DNA of 32,000 nt. It comes from Candidatus Heimdallarchaeota archaeon. GTDB lineage: Archaea > Asgardarchaeota > Heimdallarchaeia > JABLTI01. This document shows positions 1,463 through 32,000 of this stretch, piece after piece; position 1 is the stretch's first letter; every line of letters begins with the position of its first letter. The stretch spans positions 1 through 32,000 of the forward strand of contig JAUWKS010000015.1 of the NCBI GenBank assembly GCA_030614005.1, written 5' to 3'. The translations under genes and the position numbers were made by a program. The notes under the pieces were generated by a model. The model was not told the DNA's origin and made no database searches. It saw nothing but the letters and a program-made list of their open reading frames with translations.

Positions 1463-2311
1463 TTAGTCCGTTAGAATGGATTTCTTTAATTCATCCAAAA
1501 CAGCTAATGTCGAAGTATATGCAGAAATTTTTTTCTGTAATTCTTTTTCAACTAAATATTTTTTTTCTATTGGTGAAAAATTGATTTTTGAATAATTTAC
1601 ATCATAAAGAACTAAACCATCGGGAGAAACTGGTCTTATTCCACCTTTTGGCATCTTCAGTGTGGGCTCCAAGGCTGCTTGCAGAGCACTAATTGGGAGG
1701 ATAGCTCTACCAATTATTCTAATCATTGAAACCATGTTTCTAACTTGTTTCCACAAAAAACTTTCTGAAGCAAATTCAAACATCAACAAATTATTTTTTT
1801 CGAGAAGCTGAACAGAAGCAACATCCAATGTTAAGATCGTTGATTTCGGTTTTCCACTGGGTAAATTATTTGTTTTTTTGCAAAATTTCTCAAAATTATG
1901 TGTTCCAAGAAGGCAAGATAATCCCTTCTCCATTAATTGTAAATTTTCTCCAGCAAATGGTATAAAGTACCTATATGTACGCTTTTGAGCATGTCTTCGT
2001 GCATTAAAATCTCCATCGACTTTTGCTAACCCCCAAGCAAAAATATCATCTGGAAAGCAATGGTTCAATTCGTCCAGATGGATCTCTTGTTTTAACGAAT
2101 CAAATGCAATAACTTGACCTAATGCATGTACCCCTGCATCTGTTCTCCCAGCAGCTGTATATCTTGCTTTAGGTAATTTATCGATAATTCCTAATTTAGT
2201 TAAAGAGTAAAATATCTCTCCCTCGATAGTTTTTACCCCAGATTTTTGTCTTTGAAAACCATGATAGTTAGTACCAAGATAGGCAATCTTCACGGCGAAT
2301 CTATCAACCAT
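1463..2311 (-). CDS. truA: tRNA pseudouridine(38-40) synthase
   Basis: AYLGTNYHGFQRQ, AAGRTDAGVHALGQV (catalytic Asp), RTYRY, FLWKQVR. Probable start MVDRF at 2311; the ORF track extends to 2386. Confidence 0.95.
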   Translation of the reverse strand: MVDRFAVKIAYLGTNYHGFQRQKSGVKTIEGEIFYSLTKLGIIDKLPKARYTAAGRTDAGVHALGQVIAFDSLKQEIHLDELNHCFPDDIFAWGLAKVDGDFNARRHAQKRTYRYFIPFAGENLQLMEKGLSCLLGTHNFEKFCKKTNNLPSGKPKSTILTLDVASVQLLEKNNLLMFEFASESFLWKQVRNMVSMIRIIGRAILPISALQAALEPTLKMPKGGIRPVSPDGLVLYDVNYSKINFSPIEKKYLVEKELQKKISAYTSTLAVLDELKKSILTD

Positions 2312-2382
2312 GTCACAATAAGCTCCAAGGTATATTTTAACTATTGATAAAATAACTTTTTCAAAGCAAGGTTTCTTACTTT

Positions 2383-3015
2383 TCAAATTAAGGCGTTAGC
2401 AAATTCTTCTTGTAAATCAGCTTCTATTTTTGTAGCTAAATCACGTCTAAATGCAGGAGGCACAATACGTAGTGTTGTTATTAACATATCCAATATTTGG
2501 TCTACGATATTTTTAACATCAAAAGGTTTTATTTCAACCAAACCTTGAACTATTGCTTCTTCTACAAAAACTTTCACAACTGAGGATATAACTGCAAAGG
2601 TTATTCCTTCTTTTTCAATATAATATGGAAAATTCTTTCTATCGCGCAGAGTGAAAAAACCTTCTTGCTCAACAATAGAATTAATATACCAATCTAAGCT
2701 GGACTCATTTAACTCGAGTCTTTCAGAAAATTCTTTCTTTGAACTATGATTTGGGTACGATGCTGGAAGCCGATTAACTATATAGAGCGCAGCTGCATTC
2801 AGAGTTTTTTGATCCCTAGGGAAACCAGCTTTTGTAAGGTATTTTGCTACAACTTTTAAAGCAAAAATTTTGTATGATTCTTTTACTGAATAATCGCCAA
2901 AAAATTTGTAGGTATTTTTTAAGAATTGAATTGTCTCTTCTGGACTTGCTTGATCCCAGATGAGGTCAGTTTTCCCAAATGATTCTGTGTTCAAATTACT
3001 TACCCTTGTTTCCAA
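2383..3015 (-). CDS. Hypothetical protein with a TFIIB/cyclin-fold-like helical repeat
   Basis: LNAAALYIV...SKKEFSERLELNESSLDWYINSI resembles the TFB cyclin repeat (AAAxLYIA...TQxxVA...TxRNRxKEL; compare 12924-13973). TTG start, no Zn ribbon. Confidence 0.5.
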   Translation of the reverse strand: METRVSNLNTESFGKTDLIWDQASPEETIQFLKNTYKFFGDYSVKESYKIFALKVVAKYLTKAGFPRDQKTLNAAALYIVNRLPASYPNHSSKKEFSERLELNESSLDWYINSIVEQEGFFTLRDRKNFPYYIEKEGITFAVISSVVKVFVEEAIVQGLVEIKPFDVKNIVDQILDMLITTLRIVPPAFRRDLATKIEADLQEEFANALI

Positions 3016-3094
3016 TAGAGGGTTTCTTTTTTATCTTTTGTGGCGCTTGGAAACAGTGGTGTTTCTAGTAGAAAAAATGAGCTATCATTAATTA

Positions 3095-3577
3095 TCATCG
3101 TCTTCTTTTTGTTTTAAATTTCTTTGCCAATTTTTCCCAAAATGGATGTTTGTGTAATTTCACATCTCCAACAGCTTTTCTTGGTACAATGTCTAACTCG
3201 AGTAAATCTTGATCAAATTCATTGAAAATTGAAGTATCAATTACTATATTATCAATTTTATTTGCATATTTCTCAAGGAAAATGCGATGTGTATCATTAA
3301 GTTGTTTCGTGATTTTTTCGCTGTTCTCTTCAATAGGGTTTGCAAAAACGAATATTAGTTCATTTTCTTCATCAACTTTAAAATTCAGTTTTAAGTTTTG
3401 GAAGAGAACTGATTGTATTCCCTGCTGACCAAACGATTCTTTGGAGAATGAATAGAGTGCCGCAAGAAAACCGCTCTGAAGTGCATGATCTGGATGCATT
3501 TTGCACGTTTTTCCGCCATAACACTTTGAGAATAGTGGTACTCCGGATGTTTTCAATATAATTACGTCATCAGCCAT
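3095..3577 (-). CDS. Longin-domain protein (Mon1/Fuz-longin-like)
   Basis: VIILKTSGVPLFSK...LQSGFLAALYSFSKE...LIFVF pattern of the longin beta-beta-alpha fold; ATG at 3577 (MADD). Confidence 0.8.
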   Translation of the reverse strand: MADDVIILKTSGVPLFSKCYGGKTCKMHPDHALQSGFLAALYSFSKESFGQQGIQSVLFQNLKLNFKVDEENELIFVFANPIEENSEKITKQLNDTHRIFLEKYANKIDNIVIDTSIFNEFDQDLLELDIVPRKAVGDVKLHKHPFWEKLAKKFKTKRRR

Positions 3578-26689: not shown

Positions 26690-27520
26690 TTAACTCATTA
26701 ATATTTTAGTTGTTATGAATACAGCTTTTTCTGTATCTTTACGTGAAGGGCGGTAATTCTCGTGATCGATTCTATTTAATATGAGATTAACAAATTTGAA
26801 ATCTTTCAAAGCTTCTAATCCCTTAGCAGCTCCTTTGTCGATTAACATACCAAGTGTTAATTGTTCATCAAACATACCCATTCTTACTCTTAATTCAGCT
26901 TCTACACTATGAGCACATTCTTTTATACATTCACGAAAATTTCCTTCATCAAGTAACAATTCATAAGTTGTTTTTGTTGGAAGATCTATTTTCTCCTTAG
27001 GGGGGACATCTTTTGGTTTGCGTGGTTGAGGGGAGGGAGGAGGTATATCACCAGCTTTCTTTGGTTTATCCTGTGGACCATCTTCACCTCTCATCATTTT
27101 AGCAGTCATATCATCTGATGGAGGAGGGGGTGGAGGAGGAGTTTTATCTTTAGGAGGAGGAGGTAATGGTACATGTTTTTTTTCGGAAGGAGGGGGAGGA
27201 AGAGGAGGTTTATCCTTTGAAGGAGATGGTCGACTACCTGCCTTTGGTGTGCTTGGTAAATCCTTAGCTAAATCTATATCGGCCGGTGGACCTGAAATGA
27301 GAATTTTAATCTCTTTTGCACGTTTAATATACTCCTTTGCTTTTACATAATAACTATCACGTATTTTTCGTGTTTTTTCCATGGCAATTAGCTGATTCAA
27401 GAGTTCAGCCGATTCTAAGAATAATTCAAAAGCAGCCGTTAAATCTCCATTTCTTTCAGCGCGTATTGCTTTATTAGCGGTTTTTTTAACACGATCAAAA
27501 AGGTATTTCGTTGGGGACAT
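26690..27520 (-). CDS. MIT domain + proline-rich linker + HEPN/DUF4145-like domain protein
   Basis: KAIRAERNGDLTAAFELFLESAELL...YIKRAKEIK (MIT); PPLPPPP/PPPPPPP runs; GNFRECI..VEAELR..LGMLID..LILNRIDH..SRKDTEKA. Confidence 0.75.
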   Translation of the reverse strand: MSPTKYLFDRVKKTANKAIRAERNGDLTAAFELFLESAELLNQLIAMEKTRKIRDSYYVKAKEYIKRAKEIKILISGPPADIDLAKDLPSTPKAGSRPSPSKDKPPLPPPPSEKKHVPLPPPPKDKTPPPPPPPSDDMTAKMMRGEDGPQDKPKKAGDIPPPSPQPRKPKDVPPKEKIDLPTKTTYELLLDEGNFRECIKECAHSVEAELRVRMGMFDEQLTLGMLIDKGAAKGLEALKDFKFVNLILNRIDHENYRPSRKDTEKAVFITTKILMS

Positions 27521-27729
27521 TGTTTATTTCTCCTAGTAAGTTATGACTAACTAAATTAATTAATTCCATTATCTCATAATCAATAACAACTTTTACTGAT
27601 TTGAAGGTTTTTAATTAAATTACTACTTTTATATGGTGTTTTTACCTATATTTAGTATTACAATCAATTGCTATCTTTCAAAGAATTTAAATAGCTGATA
27701 TCTTCATTTCGATTCAATGGTGTTTCATA

Positions 27730-28011
27730 ATGGCGCTTAGACAAAGTGTAAATAAACGCAAAGGTAAATGGGGCCGAACAAAGGAATTCGAATCCATTGA
27801 GCGAGCACTCATCATTGATGAGGCCCTCAGAGATAAAATGCTCAAAGAAATTCCTAAACAAAGAGTAATCACCCCCACTTCAGTTTGCCAAAGATATCAA
27901 GTTAGGATGTATGTTGCAAATAATCTTATCAAAGAATTAGTTTCTTCTGGAACAATCGTTTTTCATGAAAAAACTGCCTATACTAACGTTTACAAACCAG
28001 TTCAAGCATAA
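27730..28011 (+). CDS. rps25e: 30S ribosomal protein eS25
   Basis: KGKWG, KMLKEIPKQRVITPTSV..RYQVR..VA..LIKELVSSGTI align with eS25 (KEVP..KLITP.V.S.RL.I..SLA...L.EL...G.I). Confidence 0.85.
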   Translation: MALRQSVNKRKGKWGRTKEFESIERALIIDEALRDKMLKEIPKQRVITPTSVCQRYQVRMYVANNLIKELVSSGTIVFHEKTAYTNVYKPVQA

Positions 28012-28051
28012 TCAAAAGTGTTTGACTTGGTTCTATCATTATTTTAATAAT

Positions 28052-28489
28052 TCATTTTAGAGCAATTTTATCCGTAAAAATCACTTCTACATTCTTTAGT
28101 TCTCCCTTTTCCCTTAGTAGGTATCCCTTTGGTTTAGTTGGTTCAGATGTACTGCTTATTAACCAGACACTTGGATTTACTTCCATGAATTTTTTATCGG
28201 TTCCAGAGGGATAGGGAGGTGCAGGATGTGTGTGATATATTCCAACTACTTCCAAATCACTTTCATCAATTTTAGTGTAAATTTCAAGTAAAACTAAAGG
28301 ATCAACAGTAAAGGAAACAGTTGATTTGTCAATGTTTTTTGGAGTGAAAACTTCCTCTGCAAGAGCTTGTCTATCTTTGATTGTTCCGGCAATAATTGAT
28401 ACTGATTCATTTGGTGCAGTATTTTTTGCGTGTTTAACCATTTTTTCAAATAATTCTTCTGGGATAACAATACTATCAATATCAATCAT
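28052..28489 (-). CDS. JAMM/MPN+ (Mov34) metalloprotease
   Basis: PNE...GIYHTHP..PYPSGTD gives an intact E-HxH-x7-S-x2-D motif. Confidence 0.93.
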   Translation of the reverse strand: MIDIDSIVIPEELFEKMVKHAKNTAPNESVSIIAGTIKDRQALAEEVFTPKNIDKSTVSFTVDPLVLLEIYTKIDESDLEVVGIYHTHPAPPYPSGTDKKFMEVNPSVWLISSTSEPTKPKGYLLREKGELKNVEVIFTDKIALK

Positions 28490-28622
28490 ATATTATAATG
28501 AAATTCATCAAGTAATAATTTTTTTATTAGCTGAAATGGGGAACATTCAGTAGAAATTACGCAAGTAAGAAAAAACATTAAAAAGGATATTCAATTCCCA
28601 AATATTAGTAATCTAGCTTTTT

Positions 28623-28658
28623 GCGGGGGTAGCCCAGCTAGGTCAAAGGCGCAGGGTT
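28623..28658 (+). pseudogene. 5' half of a tRNA-Leu-type gene (acceptor 5' strand to anticodon loop)
   Basis: GCGGGGG-TA-GCCCAGCTAGGTCAAAGGC-G-CAGGG-TT matches the archaeal tRNA-Leu 5' pattern; no plus-strand T-arm or CCCCCGC follows in the window. Confidence 0.75.
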
Positions 28659-28677
28659 TCGTTTCGTACCTTAATCA

Positions 28678-28892
28678 TTTCTCCCTCAATATTTCAAAAG
28701 CTATGTGAGCATGAAGTTCTTCATGTTCCTCCCATAATTACAACAAAGCAATCTATTTATAAGGAAGGAAAAAAATTTCCCTTTTACTTTTTTCCGATTT
28801 TAAAAAGTTGATCTTAAGAACACCAAATAAATTTGAGAAAGCAATTTGGTGTGGGAAAGAACTCAAACCCCTGAACTCCTAAGAGGGAGAAA
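28678..28892. repeat. Perfect 10-bp inverted repeat TTTCTCCCTC (28678-28687) / GAGGGAGAAA (28883-28892)
   Basis: Read directly from the sequence; the right copy overlaps the start of the minus-strand tRNA-like 3' half. Confidence 0.7.
28847..28885 (-). pseudogene. Degenerate tRNA-Leu-type 3' half (att-like scar)
   Basis: Minus strand reads CTC-TTAG-GAG (variable arm) TTC AGGGG-TTTGAGT-TCTTT (decayed T-arm) CCCAC-ACCA. Confidence 0.55.
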
Positions 28893-29012
28893 GTGTAACG
28901 AATAGCTACAAAATTTTAGCTATTTATAAGTATAAAATTTAAAAGTTAACATAGGATACTATTTATTAAAAAGAATTTTACCTGCATTTTCATTCATAAG
29001 GTAGGGATTTAA

Positions 29013-30230
29013 ATGAAAAATAACTTGAAAGGCATAGGATTAAAAGTTGATATAAAATCAGATGTGGATAATTACAATAGTAATTATGAAGAATATTTTG
29101 CAAGATTTGGGATATTTAATGGTTCGTTTCTTGAACGAAATAAACCTGGGATAACAAAACAATTCAATTTTATAATTGATCCAGAAACATCTTTTCTAAA
29201 TTATCCAAAAAAATTAATTAGAGAGCACGATTTAGTATTTCAATATACAAACAAATTAACTGATGGAAATTTTAAGAAACGTCATCTCATTGAGGATGGC
29301 AAAGAATATCTTGATCCAGAATTCATTAGAGAAAGACTTGTTCCTTTGACAGAAAATGTTTTACAAATCGAAAGAGGACATTTGTCTTTTGAAGATAAGT
29401 CAATAGCTAATGGTATCGAAAACACTCCAATATTTGTGAGCAATTACTCAGCACCTTATTTTTCATTGATGATTGAAACGTATCCCGATGAAATGGTTGA
29501 ATTAAACGTCGAAAGTTATTCATTAATGAATGAACGAATCAGTAAGGAGGATGTTAAATTTAACAATATAATTTCCATTATTGAGTTATCTCTTAATGAT
29601 CTTAAATATGAAGTTGAAACAAAAAACTGTATTTCGAAAATACTATCAAAAAACCTATCTAAATCTATTTCTTTGAAATTAATCAGATATGGTAATCCAT
29701 TAACAGAAGTTCAGTTACGAACTCTTTATAGAATACTGAAATGGTTGAAAGAGAAGAATTATACAATAATTTCGCAAAATTTAGGTCTTGAAGGCACTAT
29801 TTTATCGTGGTTATTAAGAGTTCCTCTTATAAGTAGAGGATGTTTTTCTGAGCGAATAAACAAGAGAAAAAAAATAGAGGAAAGAAAAGAAGATGATAAA
29901 AAAGAAAAAGTTGGTCCATTCTTTCCTTCTGAAAAAAGATTATATGACCCAAATACATTCCATTTTAGAAAAAACGTGAAATGTAATTGTGATTATTGTA
30001 GGATAAGAAAGGCAGGAAAAGATGGAACACACGATTATGCATCTTTGGGCCATAATTTCAGTGCATTAATTAATGAAAATCAAGACATGGTATCAATTAA
30101 ACATCAAAACCTAAAAGGTCTAATTCAACTCAAACTTGAGGAAGCTATTAGAGAAAGCAATAATTTAGGTATAAAAAAATATCATGTGAATAAATTGAAG
30201 AGAACTATGAAAATAATTTCTGAGGAATAA
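29013..30230 (+). CDS. TGT-like/beta-protein-like Zn-binding TIM-barrel protein
   Basis: FIIDPET near the N-terminus; C-terminal CNCDYC...GHN resembles the tRNA-guanine transglycosylase CxCxxC...H Zn site; canonical TGT catalytic motifs not recognised. Confidence 0.5.
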   Translation: MKNNLKGIGLKVDIKSDVDNYNSNYEEYFARFGIFNGSFLERNKPGITKQFNFIIDPETSFLNYPKKLIREHDLVFQYTNKLTDGNFKKRHLIEDGKEYLDPEFIRERLVPLTENVLQIERGHLSFEDKSIANGIENTPIFVSNYSAPYFSLMIETYPDEMVELNVESYSLMNERISKEDVKFNNIISIIELSLNDLKYEVETKNCISKILSKNLSKSISLKLIRYGNPLTEVQLRTLYRILKWLKEKNYTIISQNLGLEGTILSWLLRVPLISRGCFSERINKRKKIEERKEDDKKEKVGPFFPSEKRLYDPNTFHFRKNVKCNCDYCRIRKAGKDGTHDYASLGHNFSALINENQDMVSIKHQNLKGLIQLKLEEAIRESNNLGIKKYHVNKLKRTMKIISEE

Positions 30231-30233
30231 CAA

Positions 30234-31601
30234 ATGGAAATTTTAGGTTATATACTATCAAGTTTTGCTACCGTTATAACAACTCTTCTAATAACATTCA
30301 TTTTATTATTGTTTGGTAATCGAAAAAAAGGTAAGGAATATTTCCCTCAATTTGAATCTCTATATCTTCATTTAATAGATAAAATTTACGATTTAGAAAA
30401 GAAGCGTTTTATTACAACAAAAATATCACAAGAAAAATCATTAAATTATGTTAAAAAGGCTGTTTCTTGGAAATATTTTTGCTTTGGCATCAAAATTAGA
30501 TTTACTAACAGAGATGAAGGCAAAGTTACTTTTCAAACACTATTAAGGAAAATTCAGAAAAAGCTCATTGATAGCAGTTCAAAGATGGATAAAATTATTG
30601 TTGAAAACCTACTTTTATTTTACTTGTTGGAAAAAAAGTTCCTACCAAATACATTTCGAACAAGCTATGAAAATGAATATAAAAAACATCGAATAGAAAT
30701 ACTAAACAAATATAAAATTGACGAAATGCAATTTCAAACATTATATAGAAAATATATTTCCAAATCAAAGAAAAAAATACCATCAGCTGTTCTTAAAGAA
30801 ATAGTGTTTCTACAAAAAAAGACTGAAAATTCATTAGATAAAATATTAAATGATATATTGTCAAATATAATTAAGTATGTTCACAAATTAATGAAGGAAT
30901 TAAAAGTTGATTTAAAACCTTATATTATGCAAATTGACAAAGAAGAATTATCTGTATTTTTCATTCAATATAAAATTAAATTAAAAGACCCACGTAATAT
31001 AATGATTGAGGCATTAAAAAAGGCTAATTTTAGCAAATTATATCCATTGCATTACACATGGATTAAAGTTGTAGAAAATTCAGAGCTAGCTATAGCAGAA
31101 AATATTGAAAAATGGCTAACAAGTAGATTAGGAAATGCTATTAAAAAAGCAAAAAAAGAAGGAGGAGGAAAATTCTTGATTTTTAAATTTTCATTAAAAA
31201 ATTATCTAGAAAAAAATCTTGGTTTAGAAGATGATCCATATATCTTTACAGATGCATTAGAATTACAGTTTAATGAAAACAAATCTTTAATGGAGAAATA
31301 CATGTTAACTAAAGATATGGATAAACACTATCCACAATTGAATCCAGCAAATTTTCTAATGAATCCTTTAACATTTATTAATTGTATCTTAGAAAAGGAC
31401 ATTAATGAGAACGAATTTAAAGAAATACTACAAACTCACAAGATAGCTGTTGATAATACACTGGAATTAGATGCGATAAAAAAGGAAACATTAAAAGAAG
31501 CTTTTTCATTGTCTGAAAGAGACTATAAACACTTAAAACAGGCTATAAGCACAGTAGATTTAATTACATCTGATTTAACAGGATTAATATATGGATTCTA
31601 A
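30234..31601 (+). CDS. Hypothetical protein with an N-terminal TM anchor
   Basis: Residues ~3-27 are hydrophobic and followed by RKK; starts 3 nt after the upstream stop. Confidence 0.7.
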   Translation: MEILGYILSSFATVITTLLITFILLLFGNRKKGKEYFPQFESLYLHLIDKIYDLEKKRFITTKISQEKSLNYVKKAVSWKYFCFGIKIRFTNRDEGKVTFQTLLRKIQKKLIDSSSKMDKIIVENLLLFYLLEKKFLPNTFRTSYENEYKKHRIEILNKYKIDEMQFQTLYRKYISKSKKKIPSAVLKEIVFLQKKTENSLDKILNDILSNIIKYVHKLMKELKVDLKPYIMQIDKEELSVFFIQYKIKLKDPRNIMIEALKKANFSKLYPLHYTWIKVVENSELAIAENIEKWLTSRLGNAIKKAKKEGGGKFLIFKFSLKNYLEKNLGLEDDPYIFTDALELQFNENKSLMEKYMLTKDMDKHYPQLNPANFLMNPLTFINCILEKDINENEFKEILQTHKIAVDNTLELDAIKKETLKEAFSLSERDYKHLKQAISTVDLITSDLTGLIYGF

Positions 31602-31795
31602 ATTAGAAAACACATTTAACAAATATTCTTTTTTTTATCAAATTTAAGTAATTGATATTGAGATTAACAAAAAACTTGAATGAATATGATTGGTGAAGTG
31701 AATGTAATTCGAACATGTGAACTTCTGCAAAAGAATCTGAAAAGAAAGATTAGTATCATAATAATAATTTGAAAATTTTAATTTTTAGAAATTGC

Positions 31796-31999
31796 CTAAT
31801 TATCAACATCAGGAGTAGTTAAATCCTGAAAGTCAGTGATTCGCATATTTTTATCTATTTCCCTCTGGAGAATTTCTTTTCGTTTTTCTTCTTGCATATC
31901 TTCTTCTGTTGGGAATATTTTCCACCACAATTTCTTAATTTGCTTTGGGATGACTATAAATGTAAGACCAAATATAATACCACAAACCAAAAAATACAA
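31796..31999 (-). CDS. C-terminal part of a small membrane protein truncated by the window edge
   Basis: Frame open to the window end; hydrophobic segment followed by a charged tail. Confidence 0.5.
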   Translation of the reverse strand: MYFLVCGIIFGLTFIVIPKQIKKLWWKIFPTEEDMQEEKRKEILQREIDKNMRITDFQDLTTPDVDN

Positions 32000-32000
32000 G

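Follow-up and report, generated by a model that had tools for sequence, protein, structure and literature searches.

A 5' tRNA-Leu(UAG) stump as a probable integration scar at the border of a variable, defence-rich island in a Heimdallarchaeota genome

The tRNA-Leu 5' half at positions 28623-28659 is very probably the dead stump of the resident tRNA-Leu(UAG) gene, standing at the left border of a composite island. The locus is an ordinary scar of integration into a tRNA gene, at a much-used hotspot, and neither a split nor a switchable tRNA, which removes a tempting false lead. Less usual here are the 5' stump left behind and a working tRNA with its own promoter inside foreign DNA. The window is the whole stretch of 32,000 nucleotides analysed, which is the first 32 kb of the 59.9-kb contig C63; the genome (G000) has 3.6 Mb and 33.5% G+C. 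Positions beyond the window are given as coordinates of C63.

The resident tRNA-Leu(UAG) gene and its 5' stump

The left border of the island is defined by two features:

28623-28659, plus strand: 5' stump of the resident tRNA-Leu(UAG) gene (acceptor strand, D-arm, 5' anticodon-stem strand and first loop bases)
28052-28489, minus strand: host JAB/MPN-domain gene (Pfam Prok-JAB, E=4e-18), left neighbour of tRNA-Leu(UAG)

A preliminary description of this DNA had reported a clean 5' half on the plus strand, and comparison with relatives bears this out: positions 28623-28656 are identical at 34 of 34 bases to the intact tRNA-Leu(UAG) at the syntenic site of G001, a genome of the same genus. The likeness breaks off in the anticodon loop, where the stump has CAGGG TTT|CG versus CAGGG CTTAGGA in G001, and the anticodon of the stump is destroyed, reading TCG. 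Over the stump as a whole, 1 of 37 bases differs from the G001 gene, and the upstream flank is 85% identical (P ~0.03). Such high identity may reflect a break of recent date, gene conversion by paralogues, or a constraint of some kind on the stump.

Neither ARAGORN nor Rfam detected a whole tRNA in the 32-kb window, and the plus strand past 28659, aligned to the rest of the tRNA, gave nothing beyond chance. A whole pseudogene, with a decayed intron and exon 2 after 28659, was considered and rejected, the alignment scores falling below the null median (p ~0.8); the same idea for another relative, G005, was not significant either (p=0.29). Run on fragments that end at the breaks, the Rfam tRNA model fails to score even the genuine 5' stump and thus has no power for such pieces.

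The genes near the stump are of Asgard type, and include those for a MIT-domain protein, ribosomal protein S25e and the JAB-domain protein. The JAB gene is the conserved left neighbour of tRNA-Leu(UAG) in all relatives examined (G001-G005 and G010). Many intron-bearing tRNA genes with encoded CCA are found in G000. About 27-34 tRNA genes, many with introns, were detected in this 90%-complete genome. ARAGORN called a tRNA-Pyl(CUA) on contig C71, and several isoacceptors, including Leu(GAG), were not found in G000, probably because of non-canonical introns.

The empty site in related genomes and the displaced 3' part

In four genomes of the same genus (G001-G004) the JAB gene, one intact tRNA-Leu(UAG) and an ABC-transporter gene follow one another in this order, uninterrupted. 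The partial tRNA of the window is therefore collinear with an intact orthologue at the same chromosomal site in relatives. The intact gene of G001 is 88 nt long, and G001 aligns to C63 in three blocks, at 27056-28659, then at 53767-53888, then at 57462-58864. The first block holds the 1.6 kb upstream of the G001 tRNA, and the ABC-transporter and MFS genes of G001 match C63 from 57462 on. The middle block holds the missing piece of the gene:

53767-53810 of C63 (outside the window), plus strand: 3' part of the resident tRNA-Leu(UAG), 25.1 kb downstream of the stump

Positions 53767-53888 comprise this 3' part and 78 nt of the original downstream flank, on the same strand as the stump, and the far-end relic is thus still joined to the sequence that once followed the gene. 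Taken from 53744 to 53888, what remains is ~17 nt resembling the end of an intron, followed by exon 2, CCA and the flank that originally lay downstream. A perfect T-arm and the CCA are kept, and 6 of the 7 acceptor positions of stump and 3' part can still pair; the loop preceding the 3' part is mutated. The preliminary description had listed a scar of integration among its readings, and the empty site in relatives together with the far end at 53767-53888 supports it. A search for an orphan 3' half by the acceptor strand CCCCCGC came up empty, the acceptor strand of the real 3' part being ACTCCGC.

The orthologue in G004 carries a 37-nt intron at the canonical position 37/38. The sequence before and at exon 2 on C63, TTGAGCACAAGTAAGAT|ATCTTG, agrees with the G004 intron end and exon-2 start at 19 of 23 positions (p=0.001, random windows). 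Judging by this match, the interrupted gene probably had such an intron and was cut in the anticodon-loop/intron region. The intron-only part of the upstream extension of the right piece was not significant (p=0.22), on which ground an extension of that piece into the anticodon stem and loop, as an overlap or target duplication, was rejected. Within one genus this intron is polymorphic in its presence, being found in the tRNA-Leu(UAG) of G004 (contig C393; locus 2057-2181) and not in G001-G003.

A chimeric join within repeated tRNA sequence would be another source of a broken tRNA in a metagenome-assembled genome. The assembly consists of 126 contigs, tRNA-Leu 5' parts are repeated in it, and coverage by public contigs is thin at ~28560-28620. 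However, the junction is bridged by two contigs, one of 158 nt (28641-28798) and one of 499 nt from a second study (28627-29124), G010 independently has the same island order and right junction, and in G005 the stump lies beside JAB. With contigs from two studies spanning both the junction and the whole repeat region, the assembly artefact at this position that the preliminary description had allowed for is extremely unlikely.

The marine-sediment metagenome with the occupied junction (28627-29124) also has a second contig, which diverges at 28656. There the 5' half continues into an intact anticodon arm and variable arm (CTTAGGACCCTGTCTTGTAGAAGTTCGCGC), the latter resembling the displaced 3' part of G000. 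This contig with a continuous anticodon arm may represent the gene of a close relative in its island-free state.

The inserted island and its contents

The DNA between the two parts of the gene (28660-53766) is 25.1 kb of variable, mostly defence-type sequence, and is absent between JAB and the tRNA in G001-G004. Its features in and near the window are as follows:

28660-32000, no strand: left part of the composite island, which runs on to 53766 of C63, or to 57461 counting a later 3.6-kb cassette
28901-28924, no strand: palindrome AATAGCTA-N8-TAGCTATT, in front of the promoter of the orphan cassette
29013-31601, plus strand: two-gene orphan cassette (405 aa and 455 aa), the first cargo past the junction
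33.5-35.3 kb of C63: AbrB/TnpB insertion sequence

The G+C content is 28.9% at 28660-35436, 25.2% in the 3.6-kb cassette and 33.5% in the host flanks. Positions 28660-29012 are unique in G000. Searches of Pfam, PHROGs and NCBIfam yielded nothing for the proteins of the orphan cassette. The 405-aa protein is missing from all of 40 related genomes, and among 5.8 billion proteins it has a single homologue, 46% identical and labelled Candidatus Heimdallarchaeota; both genes of the cassette are found together again in another Heimdall-labelled metagenome genome, in a different context and without a tRNA. The island also holds two small minus-strand ORFs. Further cargo includes a LAGLIDADG-HTH gene, a 1378-aa protein, a DEAD-helicase/phosphoesterase, a type I restriction-modification system with a YgjP-like peptidase, and an Orc1/Cdc6 gene. 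The 3.6-kb cassette, which follows the 3' part, encodes a dCTP deaminase and two unknown proteins. It is bounded by 36-nt direct repeats of host sequence (32/36 identical; 53853-53888 and 57465-57501) and is absent from G010 and G001.

In its strict form the palindrome occurs only 3 times in G000, one copy lying on contig C15 in the control region that separates a TnpB gene from a LAGLIDADG/Cas1-fold module. The extended similarity is marginal (score 32 versus a null 95th percentile of 29), and the palindrome may be a shared operator.

The replacement tRNA inside the island

The preliminary description had proposed searching the genome for the intact tRNA-Leu and for other halves. This search was productive, yielding the 3' part at 53767-53810 and, inside the insert, an intact gene:

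35437-35524 of C63 (outside the window): intact tRNA-Leu(UAG), found by ARAGORN and Infernal

By both programs this is the only tRNA-Leu(UAG) in the assembly, and an intact tRNA of the same anticodon is kept at the locus, as in an integration scar. The island tRNA has its own TATA box upstream, TTTATAAAA, and its promoter region was not found in the genomes with an intact resident gene. It is internally coherent, with compensated pairs 7-66 and 31-39. Identities calculated for each half of the tRNA-Leu(UAG) copies separate host-type from element-type halves too poorly to establish chimerism. We infer that the tRNA is now supplied by the island copy, which would have made the stump dispensable. 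With its working tRNA and promoter lying in foreign DNA, the host may rely on the island to decode CUA and CUG.

The presence of this copy bears on a functional split tRNA of the kind found in Nanoarchaeum equitans, in which the pieces would be transcribed apart, paired in trans and joined by splicing endonuclease and ligase. Several features would suit such a gene: tRNA introns abound in the genome, the 3' piece retains an intron end, a perfect T-arm and CCA, the acceptor strands pair at 6/7 positions and the 5' stump is well conserved. The UAG anticodon, however, is gone: the 5' piece has UCG and U37 in its place, and the loop ahead of the 3' piece is mutated. The duplex between trailer and leader has an energy of -18.3 kcal/mol, no different from that of shuffled sequence (mean -18.3 +/- 3.5), and the intact tRNA-Leu(UAG) with its own promoter lies between the pieces. 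Moreover, G010 is without the 5' piece, and in G005 this piece is interrupted by an insertion sequence. The earlier suggestion of a 5' half spliced in trans to a partner elsewhere consequently fails on the anticodon, on flanks that pair like shuffles, on the intact copy in the insert and on the loss of the stump in G010, and we regard a split tRNA as very unlikely.

The minus-strand piece, the inverted repeat and the hairpin

Downstream of the stump, three further features had given the locus the appearance of a broken and possibly invertible gene:

28836-28892, minus strand: weak tRNA-Leu-like 3' fragment (variable arm, degenerate T-arm, ACCA)
28678-28687 and 28883-28892: 10-bp perfect inverted repeat TTTCTCCCTC / GAGGGAGAAA, enclosing 195 nt
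28820-28828 and 28844-28852: 9-bp hairpin ACACCAAAT / ATTTGGTGT

The stump and the minus-strand piece had been described as two convergent halves of one gene. This pairing does not stand, and the minus-strand piece was rejected as the partner of the stump, since the real 3' part is 25 kb off and on the same strand. The likeness of the piece to tRNA-Leu is itself weak. The reverse complement of ~28853-28886 agrees with the variable arm and T-arm of tRNA-Leu at 19 of 23 positions, with an empirical p of ~0.002 per 101-nt window that rises to ~0.02 when nearby windows and strands are allowed for. The T-loop reads TTTGAGT, the acceptor pairing has one mismatch and two G-U pairs, and the piece is 2 nt short. 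It obtained no score with the Rfam tRNA model, a test that also misses the genuine 5' stump. Of the minus-strand 3' half with ACCA, a weak tRNA-Leu resemblance therefore survives (p ~0.002 uncorrected) and the partner role does not. At most, the piece is an old relic of another such event in inverted orientation; otherwise it is due to chance. An inverted relic has a parallel on contig C104 of G004 (748-798), where a tRNA-Leu 3' relic running from TCTCG to ACCA lies downstream of the helicase of a Cas1-fold module, and is inverted relative to that module.

The 10-bp repeat and the 9-bp hairpin are present as first described, yet they are no more than chance gives. A perfect inverted repeat of at least 10 bp occurs in 39% of dinucleotide shuffles and in 17% of random 461-nt genome windows, and a 9-bp hairpin in 20% of dinucleotide shuffles and 10% of random genome windows. 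These frequencies weigh on the idea of an invertible segment, in which recombination at the 10-bp repeats would flip 28688-28882 and place the minus-strand piece behind the 5' half. In favour of it, the two arms of the repeat match perfectly and the right one borders directly on the tRNA-like piece, but the flipped product would still be without an anticodon and an anticodon-stem strand, and no invertase or tyrosine recombinase lies nearby. Contigs of two studies have the assembled orientation only, with no alternative joint, rare variants being beyond the reach of contigs. With a repeat at chance level and a single orientation in both studies, the inversion or switch put forward earlier is abandoned as hardly credible.

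Insertions at the same gene in sister species

Islands with tRNA relics occur at the tRNA-Leu(UAG) gene of three other species, and their cargo and relic end points differ. In G010, the gene order and the right junction (AAGATATCTT before exon 2) are the same as in G000, the left cargo is different and the 5' stump is gone. In G005, one contig (C11) has JAB followed by GCGGGGGT and then foreign DNA, which we read as the left end of an insertion sequence. Another contig (C53) has the right end of a TnpB insertion sequence followed by AGCCC...CAGGGTTTA, past which come 570 nt, an intact tRNA, 6 kb with three transporter/caspase-like genes, a 36-nt 3' relic and the ABC gene. In G009, the intact tRNA stands next to the LAGLIDADG gene that heads a Cas1-fold module, and a 33-nt 3' relic precedes the ABC gene. 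A 3' relic in front of ABC is thus found in G005, G009 and G010.

The 5' stump of G005 appears to be split between T8 and A9 by the insertion sequence. The foreign DNA after JAB contains an ORF resembling a MerR-type HTH protein, and by eye gives an IS607-like impression.

From these comparisons, the locus is a landing site in repeated use, with relics of varying length. The recombination hotspot suggested in the preliminary description is accordingly upheld by different cargo at one gene in four species. That four species of one genus carry different defence cargo at one tRNA-Leu(UAG) gene is of interest in its own right, the mobile elements of the Heimdall group being poorly known.

Candidate enzymes

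A tyrosine integrase acting at the anticodon loop had been invoked as background to the scar. No such enzyme is encoded in the island or on the contig, and the sole PF00589 match in G000 lies on another contig. The only recombinase-like proteins in the island are a protein with a predicted Cas1 fold and TnpB, neither of them linked to the junctions.

The C-terminal 529 aa of the 1378-aa protein are predicted to fold like Cas1 and casposase. The model of this part was built from an alignment of 13 paralogues and orthologues and has a mean pLDDT of 75; Foldseek places 6opm (M. mazei casposase, E=5e-7) at the top, along with many Cas1 structures. An H...D motif like that of Cas1 can be seen in the consensus of the alignment. 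Comparison of the 1378-aa protein with Cas1 by sequence was blank throughout (Pfam, NCBIfam, PDB sequence and profile searches, and ESM Atlas features).

At the island ends, no terminal inverted repeats and no clean target duplication were found; the best inverted match is 11 nt, and the flanking repeat is the 44-nt tRNA 3' part at 80% identity. Cas1-fold paralogues elsewhere in G000 are not beside tRNA-Leu pieces. Because terminal repeats and a duplication are lacking and the paralogues lie away from tRNA-Leu, no enzyme is assignable to the 28659/28660 junction. Paralogous modules of LAGLIDADG, Cas1-fold and helicase genes are present on contigs C86, C15, C8, C48 and C9 of G000, with a divergent TnpB gene and a conserved control region of ~150 nt upstream. 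The module on C63 has a tRNA and 49 nt where its paralogues have the control region.

The TnpB element offers a different route to the break. The RNA guide of TnpB is copied from DNA flanking the right end of the element. Behind the conserved right end (...GAACGGT) of the element encoding the 532-aa TnpB, the 16 nt at 35313-35328 of C63 read AAGGCTTAGGACCTTG. Counted by hand, AAGGCTTAGGACCTTG agrees with the intact resident anticodon stem-loop at 14 of 16 positions and with the island copy at 10 of 16. The TnpB of the island might on this basis have cut the intact resident tRNA-Leu, with the island captured or retained there in a homing-like manner, and the target would be present in island-free alleles only. 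The 16-nt match is tempered by other copies of the element family, in which the flank after the right end is unrelated, and it may reflect no more than insertion of this element into a tRNA relic. In addition, one mismatch falls at guide position 2, the apparent intron of the resident gene would interrupt the target, and the TnpB right end is 18 kb from the right border of the island. The left ends of the element copies, compared for a target-adjacent motif, had no usable similarity. An RNA-guided break is thus an improbable origin of the interruption. It is similarly doubtful that the island polices its own site, with a TnpB guide against the anticodon stem-loop cutting empty sites and favouring spread or retention of the island. 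If true, a guide-resistant replacement tRNA and a kept stump would amount to a selfish addiction module that breaks the host tRNA and supplies its own.

A second TnpB lies beside a tRNA gene in G000: on contig C37, ~200 nt separate the end of a shorter TnpB-like ORF (2299-3190) from the tRNA-Gly(UCC) gene downstream of it, which has an intron.

The locus provides natural alleles from before and after insertion, which could be used for probing the function of the giant Cas1-fold protein or of TnpB.

Possible course of the integration

Returning to the integration scar, the pieces could have arisen in one of two ways. Foreign DNA carrying its own tRNA-Leu(UAG) and promoter would have integrated into the resident gene; alternatively, two elements would have done so in succession, each with an attachment site resembling a tRNA, on the 5' side in one case and on the 3' side in the other. 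More cassettes, the AbrB/TnpB insertion sequence and the element encoding the Cas1-fold protein would have been added later. In sister species the stump, by then superfluous, would be disappearing or taking hits from insertion sequences.

The halves of the island tRNA form imperfect direct repeats with the resident pieces (36/41 with the stump and 35/44 with the 3' part), and such repeats are also expected of two paralogous tRNAs, which makes a single disruption indistinguishable from two or more attachment-site integrations. A single event that disrupted and replaced the gene is favoured by resident pieces that are complementary without clear overlap, by the coherent island tRNA and by a promoter found with islands only. 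Successive attachment-site integrations are favoured by the imperfect direct repeats and by the species-variable starts of the 3' relics. Either way, the stump is a by-product of integration.

Comparison with known systems

Islands in tRNA genes are flanked by partial tRNA copies, the attachment-site repeats, and tyrosine integrases use sublocations in the anticodon loop, in the T-loop and at the 3' end. The locus resembles such islands in its empty site, the partial tRNAs at its borders, the intact tRNA at the locus, the variable defence cargo and the reuse of one gene across species. It differs from the usual case in that the stump left is the 5' one, the rarer side, and in that no tyrosine integrase is present. 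The cut, moreover, lies in the anticodon loop or intron of an intron-bearing archaeal tRNA, and an intact copy with its own promoter lies inside the island, so that the resident gene may be replaced and not regenerated.

Split tRNA genes have reportedly been described in Nanoarchaeum equitans and in Caldivirga/Staphylothermus. They share with this locus a 5' piece ending at the anticodon loop, a distant 3' piece and an archaeal host with many tRNA introns. Unlike them, the pieces here have no complementary leader and trailer and no usable anticodon, an intact gene of the same anticodon is present, and the stump is dispensable in a sister species.

TnpB elements of the IS200/IS605 and IS607 types offer a further parallel, as elements of this kind lie in or beside tRNA relics here and in G005, with a tRNA-derived flank at the right end. 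They explain the secondary hits on relics and not the 25-kb interruption.

The casposons of M. mazei have terminal inverted repeats, a 14-bp target duplication and a family B polymerase, and involve the 3'-distal part of the gene; they share one tRNA-Leu gene with unrelated elements that use tyrosine integrases (Krupovic et al. 2016, PMC4779613). Of the hallmarks of a casposon, the island has a Cas1-family integrase as judged by fold search (the Pfam Cas1 model gave no match), and neither terminal repeats nor a 14-15-bp duplication. Pfam scans of the large ORFs of the island gave no match to a polymerase. Unlike in M. mazei, terminal repeats and a short duplication are thus missing, and the Cas1 fold forms the C-terminal part of a 1378-aa protein. 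What the two systems have in common is a tRNA-Leu gene as landing site, a Cas1-family protein beside the tRNA, and elements in either orientation.
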